This document shows positions 13,342 through 51,701 of a DNA stretch of 64,000 nucleotides, piece after piece. The notes beneath the pieces were generated by a model. The model had not been told where the DNA came from and made no database searches. It saw only the letters and a program-made list of their open reading frames with translations. The DNA comes from Chthoniobacterales bacterium. GTDB lineage: Bacteria; Verrucomicrobiota; Verrucomicrobiia; Chthoniobacterales; UBA6821. The number at the start of each line of letters is the position of its first letter. Positions within the stretch are counted from its first letter, which is position 1. A program made the translations under genes and the position numbers. The stretch spans positions 792 to 64,791 of the forward strand of contig JAIEQF010000019.1 of NCBI GenBank assembly GCA_019747895.1, in the 5' to 3' direction.

Positions 13342-13369
13342 CCGAAAAAAGAAAGGAGAAGAGAATAGC

Positions 13370-13463
13370 CACAAAGAACACAAAGAACACAAAGAACACA
13401 AGGAACACAAAGAAGAATTTTTTTATAAAAAAATTCTAGGGATTTACTTTTTCCTTTGTGTTC
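13370..13463. repeat. 5 x 9-bp tandem CACAAAGAA array, an AT hairpin, and an inverted half-copy CCTTTGTGTTC
   Basis: Read directly from the sequence; units lie at 13370, 13379, 13388, 13397 and 13406. It belongs to the same 9-mer family as 17772..17991, 22983..23169 and 42729..42945. Confidence 0.85.
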
Positions 13464-13517
13464 ATTAATTCTTTTGAATGTTGCTTCCTGTAACTTATTT
13501 TGGAGGGTGGTAATATT

Positions 13518-14045
13518 ATGGGCTCTACAATTATTGAAACAGAGCGACTGTTCCTGAGAACCTGGAAAGAAGAGGATGCGGAGCCGTATTAACAGATGAA
13601 TCAAGATCCTCGGGTGATTGAGTTTTTACCCAAGTCGCTTTCGATGGAGGAGGTGAAGAAATTTATCGCAGATCAAGATCGTTGCTTTCTTGAAAATCGT
13701 TATGCCTTTTGGGCTGTCGAAGAAAAAATAAGTAGAGTGATGATTGGTTTTTGCGGCTTCATGGCAGCAAAAGAACCCCTGCCTGCTTCTGCTATAGAAA
13801 TTGGTTGGAGATTCGCTTTTAACTATTGGGGACGCGGGTACGCGACCGAAGCCGCAAGAGCAGTTCTTGATTATGGATGGAGAACATTGGCCTTCGAAGA
13901 AGTTTTTGCCTGTACCGTTATTGAGAATGATAGCTCACGACGCGTCATGGAAAAAATTGGAATGCAGCGCGATCTCAAAGGCGATTTTGAGGACCCTAAG
14001 CATCCACGTTCAAAGCATGTCTCGTATCGGATCAAGAAGAGATAG
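13518..14045 (+). pseudogene. RimJ/RimL-type GNAT acetyltransferase with an in-frame TAA at 13590..13592
   Basis: From ATG 13518 the frame reads MGSTIIETERLFLRTWKEEDAEPY*QMNQDP. The paralog at 15393 reads ...EPYYQMNQDP (TAT vs TAA). The track ORF 13596..14045 is only the downstream part. Confidence 0.7.
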
Positions 14046-17755: not shown

Positions 17756-17771
17756 AAAAATTTAAGAGGGA

Positions 17772-17991
17772 AATTAACCGCAAGAGAGAGCGGAAAAGAA
17801 AGAAGAGAATTAACCGCAAAGAACGCAAAGATCGCAAAAAAGAGAATATTAGAAAGGCATTATTGATTTGTAAAAAGATACTTCAATTTCAATCATGATG
17901 AATATTCGGAGATGTCTCCAATTTTAAGAATTTCTTAATTCTTTGCGTTCTTTGCGGTTGATTTTTTTTAGTTTTTGGTCTTGCGGTTAAT
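17772..17991. repeat. inverted 9-mer arrays (TTAACCGCAAAGAACGCAAAGA / rc) around a ~95-bp AT-rich spacer
   Basis: Read directly from the sequence. The inner arms are 17810..17831 and 17940..17959, and the outer arms ATTAACCGCAAGA are 17773.. and ..17991. It fills the whole gap between the two trans-sulfuration genes. Confidence 0.85.
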
Positions 17992-22970: not shown

Positions 22971-22982
22971 CAGGATAGAAAA

Positions 22983-23169
22983 AATTTAACCGCGAAACAT
23001 GCGAAAGAACACAAAGAAAAATTAGTAGATGATATCTCTTGAAAAAGGAGCTGATGTTTTGTTTTGAGCACTTTTTTCTGATAATTACAAGCATCACGAA
23101 AAGGAAAGATCTTCAAAAAGCAAAATAGATTTCTTTCAAAAATTCTTTGCGTCCTTTGTGGTTAATTTT
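22983..23169. repeat. diverged inverted 9-mer arrays around a ~115-bp spacer (uvrC/Fic divergent region)
   Basis: The left arm is AATTTAACCGCGAAACATGCGAAAGAACACAAAGAAAAATT and the right arm is AAAATTCTTTGCGTCCTTTGTGGTTAATTTT, both read directly. Confidence 0.7.
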
Positions 23170-23200
23170 CTTCTTTCCATCTTTTTATTGTACTACAATC

Positions 23201-23264
23201 ATTGCTGATAAATTGCTGATAAATTGCTGATAAATTGCTGATAAATTGCTGATAAATTGCTGAT
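23201..23264. repeat. 11-bp tandem repeat ATTGCTGATAA, 5 full copies plus one 9-nt copy
   Basis: Read directly from the sequence; all five full copies are perfect. The last partial copy continues into the Fic ATG (ATTGCTGATGAAA). Confidence 0.95.
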
Positions 23265-24348
23265 GAAATTTCAACCAAATTATAACATAACTCGAGAGAT
23301 TGCGGGAAACATTTTGCGCATTGAAAAGGCTAAAAAAGAGTCGATCCACTTCCCACTGACGCCAACGGTATTAAGCTCATTGCGTGAATCTGCGCAGCTT
23401 TATACGACTCATTATTCCACCATGATTGAGGGAAATCAGCTAGCGCCCAAAGAAGTGGAAGCAGTTTTAAAAAAAGAAGAACACTTTCCAGGGCGTGCAC
23501 GAGAGGAACATGAGATCAAAGGCTATTATGCGGCTTTAAAAAAAGTTGAGGAATGGGCTGCTGAAAAAAAAGAGATTACCGAACAAACGATTCAAACTCT
23601 TCATGCTCTTGTCATGGGCAATGGACGGATTCGTGTTAAACCAACGCCTTATCGTGATGGACAAAATGTGATTAGGGATAGCAGAACGCGCGCTATTGTC
23701 TATATGCCTCCTGAAGCAAAGGATGTGTCAGCTTTGATGATCTCCATGGTTGATTGGATCGATGATGTAAAAAAAATTCCAACACCGATTGTTGCTGGAT
23801 TAGTTCACTATCAATTTGCAACGATTCATCCTTATTACGATGGCAATGGAAGGACAGCACGACTCTTAACAACGCTGGTGCTACATTTGGGAGGATACGA
23901 TCTGAAAGGACTTTATTCTCTCGAGGAATATTACGCACGTCATCTTCATGGCTACTATGAGGCGATAGGTGTGGGAGCTTCTCACAATTATTATGAAGGT
24001 CGTGCGAAGAGAAGTGTGACGCCATGGTTGAACTATTTTATCGCTGGTATGGCTGATTCTTTTGAAAAGGTGATTGTCAAAATGAAAGACGCTCAAGAAA
24101 AAGGAAATTCAGATCAGAGCGCTTTCTTGCGCAAGCTCGATGCAAGGCAGCGAAAAGCTCTGAAGCTCTTTCAAAAATTTGAAGCAGTCACCAGTCAACA
24201 AATTGGCGCCTTGTTTGATTTTAAGCCGCGAACGAGCACACACGTTTGTGCTGTGTGGGTTCAGGAAGGATTTTTAGAAGCAGTTGGAAGTTCTAATAAA
24301 AATAGGAAATACAAGCTGACTCCTGAGTATGAGTGCCTCATTTTTTGA
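23263..24348 (+). CDS. Fic family protein (AMPylase-type) with an N-terminal inhibitory helix
   Basis: The Fic motif is HPYYDGNGRTAR and the upstream STMIEG fits the (S/T)xxxE(G/N) auto-inhibition motif. The C-terminus is probably a winged helix. The ATG is at 23263; the track TTG is at 23257. Confidence 0.85.
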   Translation: MKFQPNYNITREIAGNILRIEKAKKESIHFPLTPTVLSSLRESAQLYTTHYSTMIEGNQLAPKEVEAVLKKEEHFPGRAREEHEIKGYYAALKKVEEWAAEKKEITEQTIQTLHALVMGNGRIRVKPTPYRDGQNVIRDSRTRAIVYMPPEAKDVSALMISMVDWIDDVKKIPTPIVAGLVHYQFATIHPYYDGNGRTARLLTTLVLHLGGYDLKGLYSLEEYYARHLHGYYEAIGVGASHNYYEGRAKRSVTPWLNYFIAGMADSFEKVIVKMKDAQEKGNSDQSAFLRKLDARQRKALKLFQKFEAVTSQQIGALFDFKPRTSTHVCAVWVQEGFLEAVGSSNKNRKYKLTPEYECLIF

Positions 24349-24849: not shown

Positions 24850-24923
24850 ATCTAAAACTTACTTTTCCTGTAGCTGAAAACAAAATTTTCTCCTTTTTTC
24901 TAAAAGTTTTTTAAAACTCTTTA

Positions 24924-24951
24924 CCCATTACTCGTTACCTATTACTTTGCC
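24924..24951. repeat. period-7 imperfect repeat CCCATTA/CTCGTTA/CCTATTA/CTTTGCC
   Basis: Read directly from the sequence. It ends 6 nt before the GT2 ATG at 24958. Confidence 0.6.
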
Positions 24952-24957
24952 TCCGCT

Positions 24958-25923
24958 ATGATTTCCATCACCATTCCCATTTACAACGAGCGTGAAGCGA
25001 TTACTCCGCTTTTTACAAAAATCCGAGAAGTGATGGATCGTCTTGGTAAACCGTATGAAGTAATTTTCGTCAATGATGGAAGTCATGATGGGAGTGCTGA
25101 GGTGTTGGATCAACTTGCGGCTAACTATTCTCAAGCAAAGATCATTCATTTTCGTCGCAATTTTGGTCAAACGGCAGCCATGATGGCAGGCTTTGATTAT
25201 GCCTCGGGAGAGGTGATCATCCCGATGGATGGCGATTACCAAAATGATCCGGAAGATATTCCACGGATGCTGGCGAAGCTTGAGGAAGGTTATGATGTCT
25301 GTTCCGGATGGCGTCGCGATCGACAAGATAACGCGCTACAACGGAATATTCCAAGCATGATGGCTAATAAATTGATCTCTTTCATTTCGGGAGTAAGGCT
25401 TCACGATTTTGGTTGCTCGCTGAAAGCTTATCGACGTGATGTGATTGAAGGGGTGAGGCTCTACGGAGAGATGCATCGCTTTCTTCCGATCTACACCAAG
25501 TGGCATGGAGCCCGCATTACGGAACTGCCTGTAAATCATTTCGCGCGTACGACCGGTCATTCTAAGTACGGTCTTGAGCGTGTGTTAAAAGTTGTCCTCG
25601 ATCTCATGGTCGTAAAATTTCTTGATCGGCATGCGCAAAAGCCGATGTATGTTTTTGGAGCCTGTGGCTTGATTAGCTTGGCAGCAAGCTTTGGCTTTGC
25701 TCTCTGGGCTATCTTGCTTTTATTGCTAGCACATAAGCCATTCATCACAACACCACTTCCTCTCATGGCCGTGTTCACGTTCCTCATGGGAGTGATGAGC
25801 TTTCTCATGGGATTACTCGCGGAAATGATTATGCGTACTTTTTATGAATCGCAAGGCAAGTCGATCTACCTGGTGCGAGGGACGTGCAATGTTGCTCAGC
25901 GGTCAACGAGAAATTTAAGTTAG
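24958..25923 (+). CDS. GT2 polyprenyl-phosphate glycosyltransferase (ArnC/GtrB/Ppm1-like)
   Basis: IPIYNE, FVNDGSHDGS and MDGDYQNDP, plus two C-terminal TM helices. Confidence 0.85.
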   Translation: MISITIPIYNEREAITPLFTKIREVMDRLGKPYEVIFVNDGSHDGSAEVLDQLAANYSQAKIIHFRRNFGQTAAMMAGFDYASGEVIIPMDGDYQNDPEDIPRMLAKLEEGYDVCSGWRRDRQDNALQRNIPSMMANKLISFISGVRLHDFGCSLKAYRRDVIEGVRLYGEMHRFLPIYTKWHGARITELPVNHFARTTGHSKYGLERVLKVVLDLMVVKFLDRHAQKPMYVFGACGLISLAASFGFALWAILLLLLAHKPFITTPLPLMAVFTFLMGVMSFLMGLLAEMIMRTFYESQGKSIYLVRGTCNVAQRSTRNLS

Positions 25924-26864: not shown

Positions 26865-26965
26865 TCTGCTTGGCCTTCGAGGATTTTTTTTGAATACTCT
26901 TCAGATGATTCAAGACGCTGGTTATTTATTGGAAGCGATAGCATGTAGGATTTTCTTTTCTTTTT

Positions 26966-26998
26966 CCTACAGCCTACAGCCTATAGCCTACAGCCTAC
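26966..26998. repeat. heptanucleotide tandem repeat CCTACAG x4.7 (one unit CCTATAG)
   Basis: Read directly from the sequence. It ends 6 nt before the asnB ATG at 27005. Confidence 0.9.
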
Positions 26999-27004
26999 TT
27001 TAAA

Positions 27005-28867
27005 ATGTGTGGCATTGCTGGCTTTATAGGTTCTGGTGATCGAGAAGTGCTCGTGAAGATGACGAGGGCTCTTGCGCATCGTGGACCCGATGCGGAGGGA
27101 TTTTTCGTTGAAGAAAAACGGGGTATTCATTTTGGGCATCGACGTCTTGCCATTGTTGACCTGACTGATGGCGCTCAACCGATGATAACGGCTGATGGGG
27201 AATTGGTGATTATTTTCAATGGAGAAATTTATAATCACGCAGAGCTGCGTGCCGAGCTGGTTGGCAAGGGATACTCCTTTCAAACGAATCATTCCGATAC
27301 GGAGGTCTTGCTTCACGGTTATCGCGAGTGGGGCGAGGGGATGCTAGAAAAACTCAATGGGATGTGGGCTTTTGCGATCTATGATCGAGGCAAGCAAGAA
27401 GTATTTCTAGCTCGCGACCGTTTTGGAAAAAAGCCACTTTACTATTTTCAGCGCCCTGGAAGTGATGGTGTTTTTGCTTTTGCTTCGGAGCTCACGGCCT
27501 TGCTCCATCATCCGCAGGCGCCACGGAATGAATTGACGTTGGCGCTCAAAAAATATTTTGCTTACGGTTACATTCCAGCGCCGCTTTCGTTGATTGATGG
27601 GATTTACAAACTTCCAGGAGGGCATTGTGGTAGGCTGGATCTTGTCACAGGACGTTGGGAGGTTCGGCGTTACTGGGAGTATCGTCTTGAGCCATGCCAG
27701 ACTGAGCTTCCAGCGGATGGCGGCAAAGCTTGGGGTGAAGCGCTTGTTGAGGTGCTCGATCGTGCGGTAAAACGCCGGTTGATGACAGATGTACCGCTCG
27801 GTGTTTTTCTCAGCGGTGGCATCGATTCTTCAGCAGTGGCTGCGCTAGCGGCACGGCATCTTCCTGCGGGGCGACTCAAAACTTTTAGTATCGGATTTAC
27901 AGATCCTTCGTTTGATGAACTTCCTTTTGCTCGGCAGATGGCAGCTCATCTCGGCTGTGCGCATCATGAAGAAATTCTTGATCTTGAAAATGCGGTGCGT
28001 CTTCTGCCTGGGCTCTTGAGCCGTCTGGATGAACCCATCGCCGATAGTTCCATCTTGCCGACGTGGCTGCTCTCAGGGTTTGCTCGACGTCATGTGACGG
28101 TCGCTTTGGGAGGCGATGGCGGTGATGAGCTCTTTGCAGGATATGATCCTTTTAAAGCGCTGAAGGCTGCCGAACTTTATTCTAAAATAGTTCCTAAAAA
28201 AATTCACCCTGCGCTCTACTTGTTGGCAAGTCGTTTGCCAGTCTCACATCGCAACATCAGTTTTGATTTTAAAATAAAACGTTTTTTAAAAGGGCTCTCT
28301 TTTTCTCAGTCGCTCTGGATGCCTGTTTGGATGGGGCCGCTCAACTTGCAAGAGATAGATAATTATTTTGGTGACAAAAATTCACCGGAAGAAATTTATA
28401 GCGAAGTGATCGAGGCTTGGGAGACTGCTGGTACAGGAGCAAGCCCAGTCGATCGAGCGCTTCAGTTTTTTACACGGCTCTACTTGCAAGATGACATCTT
28501 AGCTAAGGTTGATCGTGCGAGCATGCTTCATTCCTTGGAGGCGCGATCGCCCTTTTTAGACATCGAGGTCGTTGACTTCGCGCGGCGCTTGCCGCACACG
28601 GTGAAGTTTCGCAATGGCACCACGAAATGGATTTTAAAAAAGGCACTCGAGTCGCTCCTCCCTCACGACATTATCTATCGCAAGAAGAAAGGCTTTGGAA
28701 TGCCGATAGGATCTTGGTTGAGAGATGGAAAAATCGTTCCAAAGAGTCCTAAGACGCCAGCTGCAAAAATATTTTTTGAAAATCGCTTGCAAGCGCACCA
28801 ATCAAGAAAAAGTGACGAGCGACTTTTTCTTTGGGCTCAAGCTGTCTTGAGCACCGCTGTTGAATAG
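27005..28867 (+). CDS. asnB: asparagine synthase (glutamine-hydrolysing)
   Basis: It has the N-terminal MCGIAG nucleophile and the SGGIDSS PP-loop. The protein is 620 aa. Confidence 0.9.
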   Translation: MCGIAGFIGSGDREVLVKMTRALAHRGPDAEGFFVEEKRGIHFGHRRLAIVDLTDGAQPMITADGELVIIFNGEIYNHAELRAELVGKGYSFQTNHSDTEVLLHGYREWGEGMLEKLNGMWAFAIYDRGKQEVFLARDRFGKKPLYYFQRPGSDGVFAFASELTALLHHPQAPRNELTLALKKYFAYGYIPAPLSLIDGIYKLPGGHCGRLDLVTGRWEVRRYWEYRLEPCQTELPADGGKAWGEALVEVLDRAVKRRLMTDVPLGVFLSGGIDSSAVAALAARHLPAGRLKTFSIGFTDPSFDELPFARQMAAHLGCAHHEEILDLENAVRLLPGLLSRLDEPIADSSILPTWLLSGFARRHVTVALGGDGGDELFAGYDPFKALKAAELYSKIVPKKIHPALYLLASRLPVSHRNISFDFKIKRFLKGLSFSQSLWMPVWMGPLNLQEIDNYFGDKNSPEEIYSEVIEAWETAGTGASPVDRALQFFTRLYLQDDILAKVDRASMLHSLEARSPFLDIEVVDFARRLPHTVKFRNGTTKWILKKALESLLPHDIIYRKKKGFGMPIGSWLRDGKIVPKSPKTPAAKIFFENRLQAHQSRKSDERLFLWAQAVLSTAVE

Positions 28868-29097: not shown

Positions 29098-29211
29098 AAT
29101 TTTTTTAATAATTTATACTCAGAGATGAGATAAAAAGAAAATTATTTTTTGTATTCTTTCGCGCTTACTCTTTTTGCTAAAAGATTTGAATTGTCAAAAG
29201 TCTTGTCTTGA

Positions 29212-29246
29212 CCTTCAGCCTCCAGCCTTTAGCCTCCAGCCTATTT
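29212..29246. repeat. period-7 repeat CCTTCAG/CCTCCAG/CCTTTAG/CCTCCAG/CCTATTT
   Basis: Read directly from the sequence. It ends 2 nt before the GT4 ATG at 29249. Confidence 0.85.
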
Positions 29247-29248
29247 CC

Positions 29249-30379
29249 ATGAGCCGTATTCTTGTCCTTTGTTATGAATATCCACCAATTGGTGGTGGTG
29301 GAGGGCGTGTGGCTGCCCAGGTTGCTGCAACTTTGGTTGAACGAGGCCATCAAGTGCGTGTCGTAACGGCAGGTATGCCTCACCTTCCTCGACATGAGAT
29401 GATAAATGGAGTTGAGGTGATTCGAGTGCGTGCTCGGCGCCGTCGCGAAGATACCTGCAGCGTGTTAGAAATGTTGCTTTGGGTGCTTGCGGCTTCTCCT
29501 TTGGCTTTGTGGGAAGCGTGGCGCTGGCGTCCCGAAGTTATCCATGCTCACTTTGCAGTTCCAACGGGAGCTGTTGCGTGGCTGGTTCACCAACTCACTC
29601 GTATTCCCTACGTGTTGACGGCTCATCTTGGAGATGTTCCTGGAGGTGTTCCTGAACAGACTGAACAACTTTTTAAAAAAATCAAATGGTTGACGATTCC
29701 CATTTGGAAAGGAGCAGCGCAAGTGACCGCAGTGAGTAGTTTTGTGGCTGAGCTAGTTCAGAAGGCTTATGGTATTCAAGCTCAGGTCATCCTCAATGGA
29801 GTCCGATTGCCCAAGCAGCAGCCAAAAAAAGAGAATGAAGTCCCAAGCCTTTTGCTCGTGGGACGGTTGAGTGTTCAAAAAAATCCATTGCTCGCTATTC
29901 AAGCTCTAGACTTATTACGCGAGCTTCCTTGGACATTGAGGATTATTGGTGATGGGCCGCTTTCTGTAGCTGCTCACGAAGAAGTGGAGAGACTTCATCT
30001 TCAAGATCGTATCTCTTTTTTAGGATGGCTTTCGGCAGAAGAGGTGAGGCAGGTAATGGAACAAGCTGATCTTTTATTGATGCCTTCGCTTTCGGAAGGA
30101 TTGCCCATGGTTGGTGTCGAAGCGCTCGGGAACGGCCTTGCCATTGTTGGAAGCAGTATTGGAGGCTTGCAAGACATTCTTCTTGAAGGAAAAAATGGAG
30201 CTTTATTCGATCTGACAACAGGAGCTTCTGGTATGGCAAAAGTAATGAAGCCTTTTTTAGAGAACAGGAAAATATTAAACGCATCTCAGCAAGCTTCGTG
30301 GAGTCACGCCGCTTCTTTTGAATGGAGCCATTCCGTTGACCTTTATGAAAGAATGCTTTTTGAGGCGGCTAATCGATAA
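29249..30379 (+). CDS. GT4 (group 1) glycosyltransferase
   Basis: It has the EYPPIGGGGGRVA N-terminus and the C-terminal SEGLPMVGVEALGNG E-x7-E motif. The ATG at 29249 is preferred over the track TTG at 29174. Confidence 0.85.
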   Translation: MSRILVLCYEYPPIGGGGGRVAAQVAATLVERGHQVRVVTAGMPHLPRHEMINGVEVIRVRARRRREDTCSVLEMLLWVLAASPLALWEAWRWRPEVIHAHFAVPTGAVAWLVHQLTRIPYVLTAHLGDVPGGVPEQTEQLFKKIKWLTIPIWKGAAQVTAVSSFVAELVQKAYGIQAQVILNGVRLPKQQPKKENEVPSLLLVGRLSVQKNPLLAIQALDLLRELPWTLRIIGDGPLSVAAHEEVERLHLQDRISFLGWLSAEEVRQVMEQADLLLMPSLSEGLPMVGVEALGNGLAIVGSSIGGLQDILLEGKNGALFDLTTGASGMAKVMKPFLENRKILNASQQASWSHAASFEWSHSVDLYERMLFEAANR

Positions 30380-30389
30380 TCCAACTGGA

Positions 30390-31136
30390 TCAAACAGCAT
30401 TATATTCGCCTACACCTTTAATATGCTGATTGGTGTCCATTAATCTTTGGATGTTTTCTTTGTTATCTTGAGACATTTGTTGTTCTTGCTCCATCTCTTC
30501 CTGCTGTTTATTCATGCGCTCTGAAAAAGCATTTGAGTAGCTTGACTCTATTGTTGGTGGTGTTGATGGCGGTGGTGGTGGAGTGTGGGTCTTGCCAGGT
30601 CCGACTCCAATGCCGCCAGCGCGTCCAGTAGCTCCACCAATCCCTCCAGCAAGTCCGGCGCCTCCAGCGAGACCGCCAGCAAGTCCAGTAGGACCGCCGA
30701 TGCCGCCACCAGGTCCGCCAATGCCACCAGCAAGTCCGGCAGCTCCACCTTTAGCTCCACCAAGTCCTCCAGGTTTACCAAGGCCGCCTTCCAGTCCGGC
30801 AGCCCCACCTATTCCGCCGTCAAGTCCAGCTGCTCCACCGATGCCGCCAGCAAGTCCGGCAGCTCCACCAATGCCGCCATCGAGTCCGAGAGTTCCACCT
30901 GGACCAGCAGGTCCTTCTGGTCGGCCAATGCCACTTGCTATAACGGATTCAGTTGGAGTTATCGTGGAAAAGGAAGAGACAGAAGAGACAGATGGTTCAA
31001 GAGTAAGTAATTGGTTGGAATTATTGGGACTAGGAGATGAAGCCCCTGTTTTATTACTCGGAGAAGGAACGGGACCAGAAGGAGCAGTTGAAATGGAAAT
31101 GTTTGGAGTATTACTAGTAGCGCTTACAGAGGACAT
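30390..31136 (-). CDS. Gly-rich decapeptide-repeat protein (GL[ADE]GGIGGAA x about 8), with a Ser-rich N-terminus, poly-Pro tract and acidic C-terminus
   Basis: It is the longest ORF across a 30-nt-period GC-rich repeat (~30582..30890), with an ATG start filling the gap. The opposite strand also has a Pro-rich ORF, so the strand is not certain. Confidence 0.55.
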   Translation of the reverse strand: MSSVSATSNTPNISISTAPSGPVPSPSNKTGASSPSPNNSNQLLTLEPSVSSVSSFSTITPTESVIASGIGRPEGPAGPGGTLGLDGGIGGAAGLAGGIGGAAGLDGGIGGAAGLEGGLGKPGGLGGAKGGAAGLAGGIGGPGGGIGGPTGLAGGLAGGAGLAGGIGGATGRAGGIGVGPGKTHTPPPPPSTPPTIESSYSNAFSERMNKQQEEMEQEQQMSQDNKENIQRLMDTNQHIKGVGEYNAV

Positions 31137-31319: not shown

Positions 31320-33257
31320 TTACCGATGAATGAAAACTTGAATAATTCCTTTAGAATAATCAAGTGCGTAATGTGATTTGATATAGGCATAGGTCGGTGC
31401 TGCCCAGTTGGTAAAGCGTGAATGTTCGGTGCCATTAATAGGCCAATTAGTGATAACGATAACAGGAGGATGAAATGTTTCTATTTCTCGAATGGCAATT
31501 TCATCGAAATTTCGTGGTGCAGTGACATCGTCACAGTAGAGGTCATAACGATAAGAAGGGCGATTGGTCATAAAGTTAATTTCCGGGTTGTACGGAAAAC
31601 AAACAACATATTCTCCCTGCTTAGAATGGCGCAGGATGCTTTGATAAATAGCGGAAGCCTCTTCCCACTCGTGTGGTTTTAACTTCACATGAACTCCATT
31701 TTCGCCAAAAAACTCTTTCGTTCTTCCCTCACTGATGGCTATTCCACCCGTTGATTGAGATTGGCATCCATTGATGAAGTAGAGGGAAAGAGTAGCGATG
31801 CCTGTTGCCAAGAACAGGAAGAGAAGTATTTTAAGGAAAATTTTTGAAAAAGGCCATGCTTCTAAGGCAAAGACGATCGCCATAAGAATCGTCACGGTCA
31901 TGGGAACCATGAACTCGCTCAGATGAACCATATCGGGTCGCCAGAAAAAATATTGAGGAAAGAGAGTTAGCGAACACGCAAGAGAGGTGAGGATCAGAAA
32001 AGCTCGATGGCGAGAGTTAGACGGACCTGTTTTTTTGAAAAAGAGTCCCGCTGCCATCAAGATGAGAAGCAGCGAAGTGATGATGGGAAGATAAAGATTA
32101 AGTGCCGTTATTTTTTCACGAAGATCAGACGAGGAGAAAGAGGCACGCAGAAGCGTTGTTTTTGTACTGCTAGATGACGAGGATGGTAGAGTGGAATTGG
32201 AAGGAGTGCTTTGTGTGAAAGTATGTTTTACTGTTGGACTCGATGATGGAGGTGATGAATAAATTTTTTTCAAACCCCGCGTTGCTTGAGTCGTGATCAT
32301 GTGAGGCCACTGCTGATATTGCGTTGCAAAGCGAGGAGCAAAACCGCGATGAAGCGCGTGGCAATAGACAGGAGCATGAAGAGCCAGAAATCCCAAAGCT
32401 CCCAGCGAGAGAGCTGCTATGGAAAGTAATAAGCGACGGGTTACAGGAGTTGTGGCCTCTGAGACAACCCAAGGAAAAAGCAGAGCGAGACCAAAAAATA
32501 TGATGGTTAAGAAAAACCCGAGATCAACCCGAATTAAAAATGTGAGACTGAGAGAGAGTCCCGCAGCTCCAATCCAACCCAATTGTTTTCGATAAGTTGG
32601 ATGAGAATACAAGAATGCTTTAAAAAAAAGAGCCATATTCAACATCACAAGGAAAGCCATGTAATTTCGGAAGAGCTGTCCTGGTAGAATCAAGGTGAGC
32701 AGACCAGCAAGAGCGGCTGCGTATAGCCCGAATATTTCATGCCTCTCAGTCTGCGGCTTGGCCAAAGCCGATGGATACTGTGTCAGGCTCGAATTCTGAT
32801 CGGAGCAGTATGTACTCATACAGCCCCGACCAGAATCCATCACCTTTCTTGTCTCATCAGCTTTTTCCGTCGCCTCGCTGTGAGAGGTATAAAATATCCG
32901 GGCTGGCCGTTTTGTTGTCAACGAAACAACATAAAACGACAGAAGGCCCGTAAGGCTTGCTAAGAAAAAGAAAAAAATTCTTAACACCGTGTAGCTTGGG
33001 CCAAAAATTTTGAACAACGCAACAATCGGATAAAACCAAAAGAGATTATAATTCAAGATGGCCTCAATAAAGGGAGTTTTTCCTTCTAGTAAGCGCAGCG
33101 CAGTGACCCCTTCGACCCCTCCTTCGCCAGACGGATAGAGGCTGCAGCGGTAATAGCTGCCATAGTAGCAAAGGGCGAAGAGAAGGAGTAAGGCAGATAT
33201 CCAGTAGCGCTTGGCGGTTATGGAAGTGTGGAAGTGTGGAAAAGGTGGAGAGATCAT
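31320..33257 (-). CDS. polytopic membrane protein, putative GT-C (ArnT/PMT-like) glycosyltransferase
   Basis: It has about 12 or more hydrophobic helices, an acidic first-loop motif (SGEGGVEGVTALRLLEGKTPF) reminiscent of GT39/GT83, Ser-rich inserts and a soluble C-terminal domain. The family call is tentative. Confidence 0.4.
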   Translation of the reverse strand: MISPPFPHFHTSITAKRYWISALLLLFALCYYGSYYRCSLYPSGEGGVEGVTALRLLEGKTPFIEAILNYNLFWFYPIVALFKIFGPSYTVLRIFFFFLASLTGLLSFYVVSLTTKRPARIFYTSHSEATEKADETRKVMDSGRGCMSTYCSDQNSSLTQYPSALAKPQTERHEIFGLYAAALAGLLTLILPGQLFRNYMAFLVMLNMALFFKAFLYSHPTYRKQLGWIGAAGLSLSLTFLIRVDLGFFLTIIFFGLALLFPWVVSEATTPVTRRLLLSIAALSLGALGFLALHAPVYCHALHRGFAPRFATQYQQWPHMITTQATRGLKKIYSSPPSSSPTVKHTFTQSTPSNSTLPSSSSSSTKTTLLRASFSSSDLREKITALNLYLPIITSLLLILMAAGLFFKKTGPSNSRHRAFLILTSLACSLTLFPQYFFWRPDMVHLSEFMVPMTVTILMAIVFALEAWPFSKIFLKILLFLFLATGIATLSLYFINGCQSQSTGGIAISEGRTKEFFGENGVHVKLKPHEWEEASAIYQSILRHSKQGEYVVCFPYNPEINFMTNRPSYRYDLYCDDVTAPRNFDEIAIREIETFHPPVIVITNWPINGTEHSRFTNWAAPTYAYIKSHYALDYSKGIIQVFIHR

Positions 33258-33293
33258 CAGAATGCCATTTTTTCTTTCTCGTCAGTTTCTTTT

Positions 33294-33323
33294 AAACTCT
33301 TAAACTCTTCAACTCTTAAACCC
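33294..33323. repeat. octanucleotide tandem repeat AAACTCTT x3.7
   Basis: Read directly from the sequence. It ends 1 nt before the cutA ATG at 33325. Confidence 0.85.
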
Positions 33324-33324
33324 A

Positions 33325-33648
33325 ATGACTCCGGTGATTCTTTTAATGACTACCTTTGCAGAAGAAGTGACAGCTGCTTCAACGATTCGAGTGTTAGTGG
33401 AAGAACGCTTGGTGGCTTGTGGTACCATGATTCCAAAAGCAAAATCCATTTATTCTTGGCAAGGCAAGATAGAAGAGAGTAATGAAGTGGTCGTTTTTCT
33501 AAAAACCACACAGGCCTTGCAATCAGCGTGCATGGAGCGTTTGAAGACATTGCATCCTTATGAGGTTCCCGAAATTATCGCTGTCGAACCTACGGCTGTT
33601 AGCGAATCGTACGCTGCTTGGATACAAAAATTTACCTGTAACCTGTAA
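33325..33648 (+). CDS. cutA: divalent-cation tolerance protein CutA
   Basis: The protein is 107 aa. ...ERLVACG...SIYSWQGKIE...HPYEVPEII is typical of CutA1. Confidence 0.85.
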   Translation: MTPVILLMTTFAEEVTAASTIRVLVEERLVACGTMIPKAKSIYSWQGKIEESNEVVVFLKTTQALQSACMERLKTLHPYEVPEIIAVEPTAVSESYAAWIQKFTCNL

Positions 33649-33662
33649 TCTGCAATCTGTAA
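33635..33662. repeat. period-7 repeat CCTGTAA/CCTGTAA/TCTGCAA/TCTGTAA
   Basis: Read directly from the sequence. It contains the last cutA codons and stop, and ends 10 nt before the ruvB ATG at 33673. Confidence 0.85.
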
Positions 33663-33672
33663 GCTTAGCTCC

Positions 33673-34674
33673 ATGAATTCCGAAACACTTTCCATCACGC
33701 CGGATGCTCCCAATGCTTTCTTGGATGTGTCATTGAGGCCTCCCATGTTTGAAGAATTTACGGGACAAGCACGCACGTTGGAGCGACTCCAATTGCTGGT
33801 GGAAGCAGCAACGCAGCGTGGTGAACCATTGCAACACATTCTGCTCAGCGGTCCTCCTGGACTTGGAAAAACAACGCTCGCTCACATTTTAGGCCATGCG
33901 ATGGGAGCAGAAGTGAAAACAACGAGTGGTCCTGCTATTGAAAAAGCAGGAGATCTTGCCGGTTTGCTGACCACCATGCCGCAAGGAGGTATTCTTTTTA
34001 TTGATGAGATTCATCGTCTGCAGCCAGTCATTGAGGAATATCTTTATCCAGCGATGGAAGACTATTGCGTTGATATCATGATTGACCAAGGTCCCAATGC
34101 TCGGAGTGTTCGTCTCAACCTAGCTCGCTTTACACTGATTGGAGCAACAACTCGCGCTGGTATGATCAGTTCACCACTCCGCTCTCGCTTTGGGATGAAC
34201 TGTCGTCTTGATTATTATCAGTCGGAAGAATTGCAAAAAATTGTTCAACGAACGGCAAAGCTTCTTGGCGTTACGATTGACGAGGAGGGAAGTTTAGAAA
34301 TTGCACGACGTTCACGAGGTACTCCACGAATTGCCAATAATCTTTTGCGATGGGTGCGCGATTATGCACAGGTTCGAACTCATAGCGTGGTTGATAAAGC
34401 ATCGGCATCAAATGCTCTTGCGATGCTGGAGATCGATGAAGAAGGATTTGATGAAATGGACAAACGTATTTTGGAAGGGATTATTTATAAATTTGGAGGA
34501 GGCCCTGTTGGCCTTCACTCACTAGCTGTTGCTGTTGGTGAGGAACCTGGAACTTTGGAAGAAGTACATGAACCTTATTTAATCATGCAAGGATACCTCC
34601 AGCGAACGCCGCAAGGACGTATTGCTACGGCGAAGGTTTATCAGAAGTTGGGATTGCCGATGCCGAAGAAATGA
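33673..34674 (+). CDS. ruvB: Holliday junction branch migration helicase RuvB
   Basis: It has Walker [10 protein letters not shown], Walker [11 protein letters not shown], and [16 protein letters not shown]. Confidence 0.95.
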
Positions 34675-49402: not shown

Positions 49403-49432
49403 CTACGAACTACCAACTACAAACCACGAACT
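49403..49432. repeat. period-7 repeat CTACGAA/CTACCAA/CTACAAA/CCACGAA
   Basis: Read directly from the sequence, 16 nt upstream of the first plausible comEC start. Confidence 0.8.
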
Positions 49433-49448
49433 GTCCTCCAACCGCAGG

Positions 49449-51701
49449 TTGAAGGGCAAACGCTTTCCCTTTGTGGGGCTTGTTCTGGCGGCGATGGTTG
49501 GGATTTTGAGTGAAGAGCTGCTACAATATCCGAGCTGGTGGCTGATGTTGGGATTAATGGCGGCCTTCGGAGGGTGGTTAATGGTGCGGCGCTGGCGACT
49601 TCCATTTTGCTTTTTATTAGTCGCGCTTTTTTTGGGGCTGATTCATGCCTGGCAGTGGGAAGAAGCTCCTGCGCGGCGAATCGCTTCGTTGATTAACAAT
49701 AGCAATAGCACGGTGCTCGTGAAGGGAGTGGTGACGAGTGAAGTGAAGCGTGTTGGAAAAAATCATGTTACTTTTTTGATGGAGGTGCAGCAGTTGGAAT
49801 GGAATTTCACCACGTTGACTCCCAGTGTGACGATGTTCGTTCATTGGGAGGGAGCGATGCCTGCCTATGGCGATCTGGTTTCGTTGCGAGCAGCAGCTGA
49901 GTCGTCTCCATTGCCAAAAAATCCTGGCGAGTTTAACAAAGCTGCTTGGTTGGCGCGGCAAGAAGTTTGTACGGAATTGAAGATGGATCCATCAGAACCA
50001 GGAGTAATCGTTTCATCAGGACATGGCTTTTTTCTGAAGCGTTGGGCAATCTCATGGCGTGAGCGAGCTGAGAAGGTTCTGGAATTGGGTCTTGAGGGAG
50101 AAACTTCCGTCGTGAGTATTATCAAAGGAATTGTTCTTGGCATCAAAGAAAACGAGGCGTCGATCGATGATTTCAAACTCACAGGGACGATGCATCTTTT
50201 TGCGGTGAGCGGATTGCATGTTGGGATGATTGTCATGATGATTTGGTTTTTTTTAAAATTGCTTCGATTCTCATCGCGGGTTGCTGTGCCTGTGACGCTC
50301 CTTTTTCTTTTCGCTTATGTGATGATGACAGGATGTCACATCGGAAGCTTGAGGGCAGCTGTGATGGCCTCGATTGTGTTGATAGGATTTTTGTTAGAGA
50401 GGCGGCCTCAAATTCTCAACAACTTGGCGGCTGCTGCTTTTTTGTTGCTCCTGTTCAACACGAATCTGCTTTTCTCGATGGGATGGCAGTTTTCTTTTTC
50501 CGTTGTTTTAGCCATTGTGGTCTTGGCACCGCTGTCGGAGCGCTCTTTCAAAAAATATTTTGAGTATGATTCTTTTCTTCCAAAAAGTCTCATTACACTG
50601 TGGCAAAAGCGATGGCAGCACGTCGGGAAGCATGTGGCTCAATTAATCGGTGTCTCCATCGCAGCCTGGGTAGGGGCGCTGCTGCCAACCGCTTATTATT
50701 TTCACCAAATTTCTTTTTCGGCGCTCGGAGCCAATGTTCTTGCAGTGCCGCTCACTTTTCTCATCATGTTGACTGCCTTGCTCGCCATTGGGACGGGCCT
50801 CATCACTTCATCTGGAGCGATCATTTTTAACAATGCCAATTGGCTTTTTGTCAAAATGTTGATCTGCGTCATTCATGGTTTTGCTCTCTTGCCGTGGAGT
50901 TCGTATTCGATCGCTCTTCCGTCTCCCTCGCATCCGCGATTGACGCTCTTTGCTTTTCCTGATGCTCAAGTAGCCCTATTGCAGACAGAAGGAAAGAACT
51001 GGTTGATCAATACAGGTCGTGCCGCCAACGCCACGAAAACGATCTTCCCTTTTTTGGAAACATCAGGCATCAAGCGGCTCGATGGAATTTTGTTAACAAA
51101 TGAAGAGCCAGCTTTCGCGGGTGGGGCGTCACTTTTAATAAATCAATTTTCCAAAGCAATCTTGTTGGCTCCATCAGAGCATGGGCACTCTTATTTATTT
51201 CAACGTTTGATCAAAGCTTATCGTGCAACTCACGATAATGTGATTTCACTTCAACAACGAAACCGTATCGATTTTTCCTCAGCGTGTTGGGGAGAAGTTT
51301 TTGAACCGCCCAACTCTGTCTCACTTGCTTTGAAATTGCATTTGGGAACGACAACGGTGCTGATGATTCCCGATGCTGCTGCTGGTCAGTGGCTCTTGAC
51401 CGATGTTGGGCCTGAAATGTTGCACGCAGATGTGTTGAATCTTCCTTGGAAAAATTGTGAGCTTTTACAACAAAAACCTCTGTTGACAACAATTAGACCG
51501 CGGATGCTGGTTCTACCTGATCATTTTCCAGGACAACAAAAAGTATTTCGTGATAAAGAAAAGCAGCTGCTACAGCAGCACGGCATCACGCTTTTTTCAC
51601 AAGAGGAGGCAGGTGCCATCATCATTGATGTGCTTTCGCAAAAAATAGGGGTCAGGCTTCAAATTTCAAATTTTAATAAAAGATCGGAGCTTTATTTCTA
51701 A
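49449..51701 (+). CDS. comEC: ComEC/Rec2 DNA internalisation channel protein
   Basis: It has a DUF4131-like N-terminus, a polytopic competence domain and a C-terminal MBL-like domain. The start is uncertain (TTG 49449, GTG 49473 or ATG 49494). The track start at 49326 lies inside repeat copy B. Confidence 0.8.
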   Translation: MKGKRFPFVGLVLAAMVGILSEELLQYPSWWLMLGLMAAFGGWLMVRRWRLPFCFLLVALFLGLIHAWQWEEAPARRIASLINNSNSTVLVKGVVTSEVKRVGKNHVTFLMEVQQLEWNFTTLTPSVTMFVHWEGAMPAYGDLVSLRAAAESSPLPKNPGEFNKAAWLARQEVCTELKMDPSEPGVIVSSGHGFFLKRWAISWRERAEKVLELGLEGETSVVSIIKGIVLGIKENEASIDDFKLTGTMHLFAVSGLHVGMIVMMIWFFLKLLRFSSRVAVPVTLLFLFAYVMMTGCHIGSLRAAVMASIVLIGFLLERRPQILNNLAAAAFLLLLFNTNLLFSMGWQFSFSVVLAIVVLAPLSERSFKKYFEYDSFLPKSLITLWQKRWQHVGKHVAQLIGVSIAAWVGALLPTAYYFHQISFSALGANVLAVPLTFLIMLTALLAIGTGLITSSGAIIFNNANWLFVKMLICVIHGFALLPWSSYSIALPSPSHPRLTLFAFPDAQVALLQTEGKNWLINTGRAANATKTIFPFLETSGIKRLDGILLTNEEPAFAGGASLLINQFSKAILLAPSEHGHSYLFQRLIKAYRATHDNVISLQQRNRIDFSSACWGEVFEPPNSVSLALKLHLGTTTVLMIPDAAAGQWLLTDVGPEMLHADVLNLPWKNCELLQQKPLLTTIRPRMLVLPDHFPGQQKVFRDKEKQLLQQHGITLFSQEEAGAIIIDVLSQKIGVRLQISNFNKRSELYF

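Follow-up and report, generated by a model that had tools for sequence, protein, structure and literature searches.

Tandem heptamer repeats that end just before start codons have been described in other bacteria. In a Beggiatoaceae genome, 169 sets of TAACTGA repeats lie mostly in the forward orientation and end a few nucleotides before start codons without a ribosome-binding site, and ribosomal protein S1, Csp and CsrA have been discussed as their readers; these direct repeats are known from marine Beggiatoaceae, some Cyanobacteria and Bacteroidetes (MacGregor 2015, PMC4679880). In Xanthomonas and Nostoc, heptameric simple sequence repeats (SSRs; GGGAATC and GGGGAYT, respectively) are for the most part located 0-50 bp ahead of open reading frames (ORFs), the G-rich strand being the non-coding one (Rehm et al. 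2015, PMC4692102), and according to a Nostoc preprint such heptamers affect recF and recO expression (10.1101/2022.06.06.494920). Here we describe start-proximal heptad arrays in a 64,000-nt stretch of DNA from a Chthoniobacterales bacterium (contig JAIEQF010000019.1, positions 792 to 64,791; the whole stretch is called the window) and in its relatives. The feature is real, lineage-wide and well above chance, and in a minority of genes, roughly 5-10%, the 30-40 nt just ahead of the start codon consist of such an array. The architecture has precedents (PMC4679880, PMC4692102) and is of a known kind whose mechanism is unexplained; our literature search found no report of such arrays for Verrucomicrobia. 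How ribosomes find start codons in many bacteria without Shine-Dalgarno (SD) pairing is an open question, and start-proximal heptamer arrays, always with the C-rich strand as sense and with an unsolved mechanism, are now known from four or five unrelated phyla.

The RuvB relatives of the window are freshwater Chthoniobacterales ('Spartobacteria', Verrucomicrobiota), the closest genomes having 86-92% RuvB identity. The survey comprised the window and 80 RuvB loci of relatives (L001-L080), 1.34 Mb in all, examined with a lag-match scan. Period 7 is the over-represented non-triplet period, with 33 arrays at 17 or more of 21 matches compared with 0.3 in a Markov null; the same scan gives 0 arrays at period 5, 5 at period 8, 1 at period 10 and 2 at period 11. 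The window and its low-GC relatives have 6-10 arrays per 100 kb. The corresponding densities are 1.4-2.8 for other Chthoniobacterales and 0.7-1.3 for unrelated metagenome AsnB loci (relatives of at most 71% identity) that serve as an outgroup control.

The position of the arrays is equally distinctive. Read on the C-rich strand, 17 of the 55 period-7/8 arrays end between -8 and +12 nt relative to the first ATG in an ORF of at least 100 aa, compared with one read on the G-rich strand (a bias of 17:1) and with 0.96 expected when the 55 arrays are placed at random (maximum 5 in 1000 trials). When the null is confined to non-coding DNA, 11 start-proximal arrays are observed against 1.7. The modal gap between array and ATG is 6 nt, the start-proximal arrays precede about 12 non-orthologous genes, and the placement flush with the ATG holds even in spacers of 140-380 nt, while divergent spacers of 56-67 nt are filled by arrays. 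Enrichment just upstream of starts on the sense strand, which the original prediction had proposed from the window alone, is thus found across the survey. A pervasive heptad periodicity of all starts was considered and rejected, as the 35 of 115 genes with best lag 7 are inflated by orthologs; with orthologs removed, a lag-7 preference is seen in 20 of 79 start regions versus 13 expected (p=0.03), so that the arrays mark a minority of genes, and in these deduplicated regions it is not seen at -105..-64. The heptads keep no fixed phase relative to the ATG (p=0.32); it is 4, 2 and 3 in the three best arrays.

Within the window, Tandem Repeats Finder (TRF; periods 7, 8 and 14, score at least 37) returns nine rows that correspond to eight arrays, where the mean of 40 second-order Markov shuffles is 0.45 and the highest value 2. 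All seven runs of the original prediction lie at the coordinates it gave, with correct gaps to the start codons. Of its six start-codon loci, five are well supported, with arrays that stop 1-10 nt short of the ATGs of GT2, AsnB, GT4, CutA and RuvB, and the sixth, comEC, has an uncertain start codon; all six products are identified by Pfam. The heptad character stands at asnB, GT4, ruvB and comEC, and as an 8-mer at cutA (lag matches 24/26, 19/28, 18/21, 18/23 and 19/22, respectively), and is weak in the GT2 run and in a run at 43930-43957 (11/21 lag-7 matches each). The repeats are imperfect, with 79-92% TRF matches.

Three of the arrays, all on the plus strand, lie within a glycosyltransferase cluster. 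The GT2 array (24916..24951; CCCATTA/CTCGTTA/CCTATTA..., a weak heptad or 14-mer) ends 6 nt before the ATG at 24958 and is detected by TRF as period 14 only (24916-24946, 2.2 copies, score 48). The asnB array (26966..26998; CCTACAG x4.7; TRF period 7, 4.7 copies, score 59) ends 6 nt before the ATG at 27005, an unambiguous start since the protein begins MCGIAGF. The GT4 array (29212..29246; CCTTCAG/CCTCCAG/CCTTTAG/CCTCCAG/CCTATTT) ends 2 nt before the ATG at 29249, is called at 29212-29242 as period 7 (4.4 copies, score 41) and also as period 14 (score 55), and is directly preceded by TTGACC (29208-29213).

Two further plus-strand arrays belong to cutA and ruvB. The cutA array (33286..33323; 8-mer TTAAACTC x3.8; TRF 33292-33321, period 8, 3.8 copies, score 53) ends 1 nt before the ATG at 33325 and takes up most of the 67-nt spacer to a divergent ORF, 31320-33257 on the minus strand; this ORF carries within its first 12 codons another 8-mer repeat, CCACACTT x2.6 (minus strand, 33221-33241). 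The ruvB array (33635..33669; CCTGTAA/CCTGTAA/TCTGCAA/TCTGTAA/GCTTAGC; TRF 33634-33662, period 7, 4.1 copies, score 37) ends 3 nt before the ATG at 33673 in an operon-like gap of 24 nt. The cutA stop codon (33646-33648) lies inside the ruvB array, which is therefore present in mRNA; the other arrays would likewise be transcribed.

The comEC array (49403..49432, plus strand; CTACGAA/CTACCAA/CTACAAA/CCACGAA; TRF period 7, 4.3 copies, score 39) lies within the longest comEC ORF, 16 nt before an in-frame TTG at 49449. Directly 3' of it, a predicted hairpin (about 49432-49458; -13.9 kcal/mol, z -2.27) encloses this candidate TTG, so that the comEC start is either elsewhere or occluded.

The CCTTCAG-type run at 43930..43957 had been grouped with the sense-strand arrays, an assignment that fails, since both flanking genes are on the minus strand and the run is antisense to each. 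Its sequence complements a CCTTCAGCC element in the translation initiation region (TIR) of gene 42921-43820(-), and in the minimum free energy fold it forms a predicted stem of about 10 bp with 43831-43842 (overall z -0.97). The arrangement of run and TIR is kept in L003 and L002, with some two-sided changes. Across these three sequences, long-range pairing of the run with the downstream TIR is no more than suggested. The G-rich and C-rich heptad runs, complementary to one another, flank a core of about 90 nt in the conserved intergenic spacer 43821-43953; the core is nearly invariant in L002 and L003 and contains a perfect palindrome, TCTATTTTCAAAATAGA (43898-43914). The core resembles an operator or promoter region of gene 42921-43820(-).

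Across the survey, the arrays are built from more than 30 different units. The typical unit has one to three A or purines followed by a pyrimidine block of 4-5 nt, and on the sense strand, which is rich in C, U and A, each unit contains no G or about one. The unit sequence had been taken to be independent from locus to locus, which does not hold, as non-orthologous genes share CCTGTAA and CCTNCAG types and the arrays evolve in concert. A YCTNYAR family recurs at unrelated genes in the low-GC clade. CCTGTAA units (equivalent to TAACCTG, the commonest unit) precede ruvB, asnB in L161, cutA in L001 and L002 and one gene in L009; CCTACAG units are found at asnB and in L004, and CCTYCAG units at GT4 and at asnB in L005. 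GC-rich relatives prefer CTCTCAA/CCCTCAA units. Sites of the HutP and TRAP type consist of regularly spaced NAG (or GAG/UAG) triplets, read by a cognate oligomeric protein; of the arrays, those at asnB and GT4 have a NAG in every 7-nt unit, and the CCTGTAA, TTAAACTC, CTACGAA and CTCTCAA arrays do not. The diversity of the units speaks against pairing of the arrays to 16S rRNA, and Rfam gives no match at the gathering threshold anywhere in the window. In L004, four different heptad arrays (CATCTTC, CCCACCT, CTTCCAT and CCTACAG) lie within about 215 nt near the contig end (132-346, minus strand), in a coding stretch or a very long leader.

The closest resemblance is to the TAACTGA repeats. Both systems consist of short forward tandem heptamers (2-6 there, 3.8-4.7 copies here) that end within a few nucleotides of the start (gaps of 1-10 nt here), overlap the stop codon of the upstream gene in some cases, lack an SD motif and predicted RNA structure, and precede genes without a functional theme; S1 and Csp are the proposed readers, and TAACCTG resembles TAACTGA. 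Unlike the single exact unit used genome-wide in Beggiatoaceae, more than 30 units with lineage-specific favourites are used here, in a different phylum, and the turnover and concerted evolution of orthologous arrays are documented here. No tandem copies of TAACTGA, of the cyanobacterial short tandemly repeated repetitive (STRR) heptamers STRR1-3 (CCCCAGT, TTGGTCA and CAACAGT), or of TTTTGAA or TTTTGAT were found in the window and L001-L080. Stop codons in all three frames, a trait of TAACTGA, are not general here, many units having no stop triplet at all. With the Xanthomonas and Nostoc repeats the arrays share the over-representation of heptamers among intergenic SSRs, the location 0-50 bp from an ORF with the C-rich strand as sense, and occasional overlap with stop codons. 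The repeats of those bacteria, however, have a single unit type in up to 26 copies, with runs of three or four G that form G-quadruplexes in vitro, whereas the antisense units here (CTGTAGG, CTGRAGG, TTACAGG, AAGAGTTT and TTCGTAG) have at most GG, and often no G-run. The arrays therefore agree with the known heptamer families in position and depart from them in unit sequence and G-quadruplex potential.

A functional parallel is offered by the omega leader of tobacco mosaic virus (TMV), a G-poor sequence with ACAAUUAC direct repeats and a CAA tract, which is an S1-dependent, SD-independent enhancer in E. coli. Like the arrays, the TMV omega leader and CA-rich or unstructured standby sites place a G-poor, unstructured, repetitive sequence 5' of the start in place of an SD motif; they are not chromosomal bacterial features, and the parallel is one of function without homology. 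By this analogy, we think that the arrays may work like S1-dependent, SD-independent enhancers.

Comparison of orthologous 5' regions, suggested in the original prediction as a check, indicates that place and strand are kept, that units turn over and that some arrays are lost. At strain level, a CutA search gave nine contigs from several samples (94-97% CutA identity, about 93% nucleotide identity), in all of which the cutA array is identical and the copy number of both the cutA and the ruvB array is constant; the ruvB array differs among them by one nucleotide, at position 1 of a unit. Relative to L161, third codon positions differ by 11%, and the GT4 and cutA arrays show no changes. The ruvB array is in register in L001-L003 and L171, a register kept across five lineages, with C2, T3, T5 and A6 of each unit most conserved, and its units undergo concerted changes within a lineage (e.g. 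A7 to G in three units of L002). The gap-free alignment of the GT2 array with its L002 ortholog has 69% identity.

Between more distant relatives, the cutA 8-mer is present in 3.8 units in the window, 6 in L003 and 7 in L172. GT4 keeps an array of 4-5 units, made of CCTYCAG in the window and L161, CCTGTAG/CCTATAA in L170 and a CTGTAG-like unit in L002, and the asnB array is made of CCTACAG in the window, (CCTGTAA)x4 in L161 and CCTCCAG in L005. The gene after ruvB carries arrays that are unrelated from genus to genus (CTTCCAT, CTCATTA, CTCAGGT and CCTAAAG). About 90 nt 5' of asnB are wholly replaced between L161 (3828-3922) and the window (26910-27004), which elsewhere share 93% identity; in each, this stretch closes with a heptad array, the units differing, and upstream conservation ends just past a weak hairpin and T-run 3' of the sulfotransferase gene. 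A mobile element, miniature inverted-repeat transposable element (MITE) or mobile cassette at asnB was considered and rejected, because the similarity of these upstream regions to other loci is confined to the repeats and does not extend into the flanks, in keeping with the earlier view that the arrays are not one mobile element. In two relatives, an inserted FitA-like ribbon-helix-helix and PIN toxin-antitoxin pair separates cutA from ruvB (L170 6554-7261, L172 2440-3147); the array has been lost there, and ruvB begins 6 nt after the PIN gene. Place, strand, composition and approximate length (about 4-5 units) thus persist, and unit sequence does not. Judged from these alignments, the arrays evolve in concert and turn over between species, and they are dispensable in some contexts. 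What is new from this lineage is the heterogeneity of the units, the tracing of orthologous arrays from strain to family level, and the renewal of arrays at the same gene with different sequences. The lineage separates what is conserved from what is not, and provides a tractable comparative system for SD-independent initiation.

The composition of start regions was analyzed in the window and close relatives. GGAG, GAGG or AGGA occurs in 4% of the -20..-5 windows versus 10% at -60..-45, and no GGAGG-type motif lies between array and ATG at the inspected window loci, so that the arrays sit at the SD position without an SD motif, as had been noted. Verrucomicrobia are listed among SD-scarce taxa, with CCUCC kept in the 16S rRNA (PMC10783764). 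The G fraction is 0.11-0.12 from -20 to +29. Start regions (-40..+20) have a predicted folding energy of about -5.5 kcal/mol compared with about -10 for control windows, whether arrays are present or not, and around the 19 start-proximal arrays the region -45..+15 folds at -4.3 kcal/mol versus -10.1 for other genes of the same loci. The sense arrays alone are predicted at -0.2 to -0.6 kcal/mol, whereas their reverse complements fold (asnB -8.5, GT4 -7.9 kcal/mol). The GT4 TIR is less folded than 200/200 shuffles. A lowering of folding by repetition beyond composition is true at GT4 and ruvB and was rejected as a general rule, as the 19 array regions have a mean z of 0.02 against dinucleotide shuffles. 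The original prediction is thus supported in part: the sense-strand arrays are predicted to be unstructured, with the low structure coming from G-poor composition and not from repetition, and each of its three readings (an S1-friendly leader, a periodic binding platform and a mutational product) may apply.

The explanation that we favor, tentatively and with a probability of about 0.45, is that the arrays are born by slippage, evolve in concert, and are kept as a G-poor, structure-free region of 30-40 nt for SD-independent ribosome loading. Replication slippage would duplicate a unit of 7 nt (sometimes 8 or 14 nt), and further slippage would keep the array internally homogeneous. The G-poor sense strand would leave the mRNA segment loaded by the 30S subunit unable to fold, and the unfolded array may then serve as an SD-independent loading region of the type bound by S1, the most evident candidate for its reader. 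Cold-shock-domain proteins, with a footprint of 6-7 pyrimidine-rich nt, are possible second binders; CspB binds pyrimidine-rich heptamers (PMC1904285, PMC7825780). Repetition itself would mainly reflect the way in which the segment forms and is regenerated, and would probably not be read by the ribosome. A number of observations weigh against this explanation. In the low-GC clade, start regions without arrays are as open as those with them (-5.7 vs -5.3 kcal/mol), so that arrays are not needed for an open start region, and the mean z of the array regions ties their openness to composition. No array is found at asnB in L002 or at ruvB in L170, L172 and L005, and the lack of a fixed phase of the heptads relative to the ATG counts against it as well. 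The 56-67-nt divergent spacers leave little room for a separate promoter beside the array, and if many genes are leaderless, as is hinted below, the array region would be promoter DNA. Finally, composition alone does not account for the repeated appearance of certain unit families (CCTGTAA, CCTNCAG and CTCTCAA).

Some of these observations would also be expected if the arrays were a neutral by-product, an alternative that we consider somewhat unlikely. Slippage-derived heptamers would survive only just before starts and then decay, repeat and unit being functionless; elsewhere they would frameshift coding sequence or disrupt promoters and terminators, and only the G-poor orientation would be tolerated, since start regions need openness. 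Composition alone accounts for the low structure, the deduplicated lag-7 preference is confined to a minority of genes, the losses at asnB and ruvB have no obvious replacement, and slippage appears to be ongoing, as shown by 14-nt higher-order duplications and by the 3.8, 6 and 7 copies at cutA. Heptamers are, moreover, the commonest long SSR unit in prokaryotes and dominate the long SSRs of many bacteria, as far as Mrazek 2007 is cited in PMC4679880. Neutral decay does not readily explain, however, why arrays are flush with the ATG in long (140-380-nt) spacers, why the GT4 and cutA arrays have no substitutions where synonymous sites differ by 11%, why GT4 and asnB retain an array of 4-5 units through changes of the unit itself, or why unit families are common to unrelated genes. 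A further possibility, that the period of 7 nt itself matters, would make each heptad one site for a single-stranded RNA binder of the oligonucleotide/oligosaccharide-binding (OB) fold (Csp or S1 domains) that coats the leader and delivers it to the 30S subunit. Such an SD-independent pathway would be common to Chthoniobacterales, Beggiatoaceae, Nostoc and Xanthomonas, the favorite units (CCTGTAA, CTCTCAA, TAACTGA and GATTCCC) reflecting co-evolution with the binder; we regard this as quite improbable.

The arrays might instead act at the DNA level, as the core promoter of leaderless or short-leader genes, in which the 35 nt before the ATG would contain phased -10-like hexamers (TAACCT, TAGCCT, TAAACT and TAAGCT) that set spacing, or heptads that bind a transcription factor. 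ToxR, for example, recognises direct TTTTGAT repeats. A TANNNT hexamer begins precisely 12 nt before the ATG (position -12) in 14 of 115 genes, a peak over a background of 2.2 (window and L001-L009, orthologs not deduplicated), and a similar peak lies at -15..-12 in L027-L080. Position -12 is that of the -10 box in leaderless genes, which suggests a sizeable leaderless or very-short-leader class in Chthoniobacterales. TAACCT shows a 12.8-fold enrichment at distances of up to 45 nt from starts, single copies included; the TTGACC before the GT4 array is 16 nt from a TAGCCT (TTGACC-N16-TAGCCT), and the same hexamer is conserved as a -35-like box before GT2 in 12 relatives; and the filling of the short divergent spacers by arrays fits a promoter as well. 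Yet many units (e.g. CTCTCAA, CTTCCAT, CTACGAA and CCTCCAG) lack TAnnnT, a period of 7 does not fit the 23-bp offset of -35 and -10 hexamers, and the scan for sigma-70 consensus promoters and terminators finds nothing beyond chance. Neither a spacer nor a factor site would be expected to show a 17:1 strand bias or a G-poor sense strand, and the ruvB array lies within an operon-like gap, so that we consider a promoter function unlikely. Phase variation, in which copy-number slippage would switch the surface-polysaccharide genes GT2, AsnB and GT4, could be read from the three arrays in the glycosyltransferase cluster, from the different cutA copy numbers between genera and from the swapped asnB upstream region. 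The phase-variable SSRs of Haemophilus, Neisseria and Moraxella are likewise tandem repeats of slippage origin between promoter and start. The arrays here are, however, imperfect, are carried by the housekeeping genes ruvB and cutA, are identical at GT4 in L161, and show no copy-number polymorphism at cutA or ruvB in the nine independently assembled close contigs, which effectively excludes such switching.

Other repeats in the window have different periods. The Fic array (23201..23270, plus strand; ATTGCTGATAA x6.3; TRF period 11, 98% matches, score 131) is flush with a start in the manner of the heptads, with the ATG at 23263 of a Fic-domain gene inside its last unit; L161 has a NikA-like/PIN pair in place of the Fic gene and its neighbour. 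An intergenic element about 170-200 bp long is repeated at 17756-17986, 42720-42920 and 22971-23256 (minus-strand sense), with a related half-element at 13342-13595. It lies always just upstream of a minus-strand gene start, and its ends are inverted 9-mer arrays, TTAACCGCAAAGAACGCAAAGAA and TTCTTTGCGTTCTTTGCGGTTAAT, separated by about 110 nt. Its (TTCTTTGYG)n-GGTTAA motif also precedes ruvB in L005 and L009. The element could be MITE-like or a promoter module, two 9-mers giving an 18-nt spacing. Lastly, the minus-strand ORF 30390-31136 (248 aa, no Pfam match) contains degenerate 30/60/90-nt repeats (30607-30900) rich in GGN codons, which encode a glycine-rich, collagen-like sequence; its counterpart in L161 has 213 aa and is poorly alignable.

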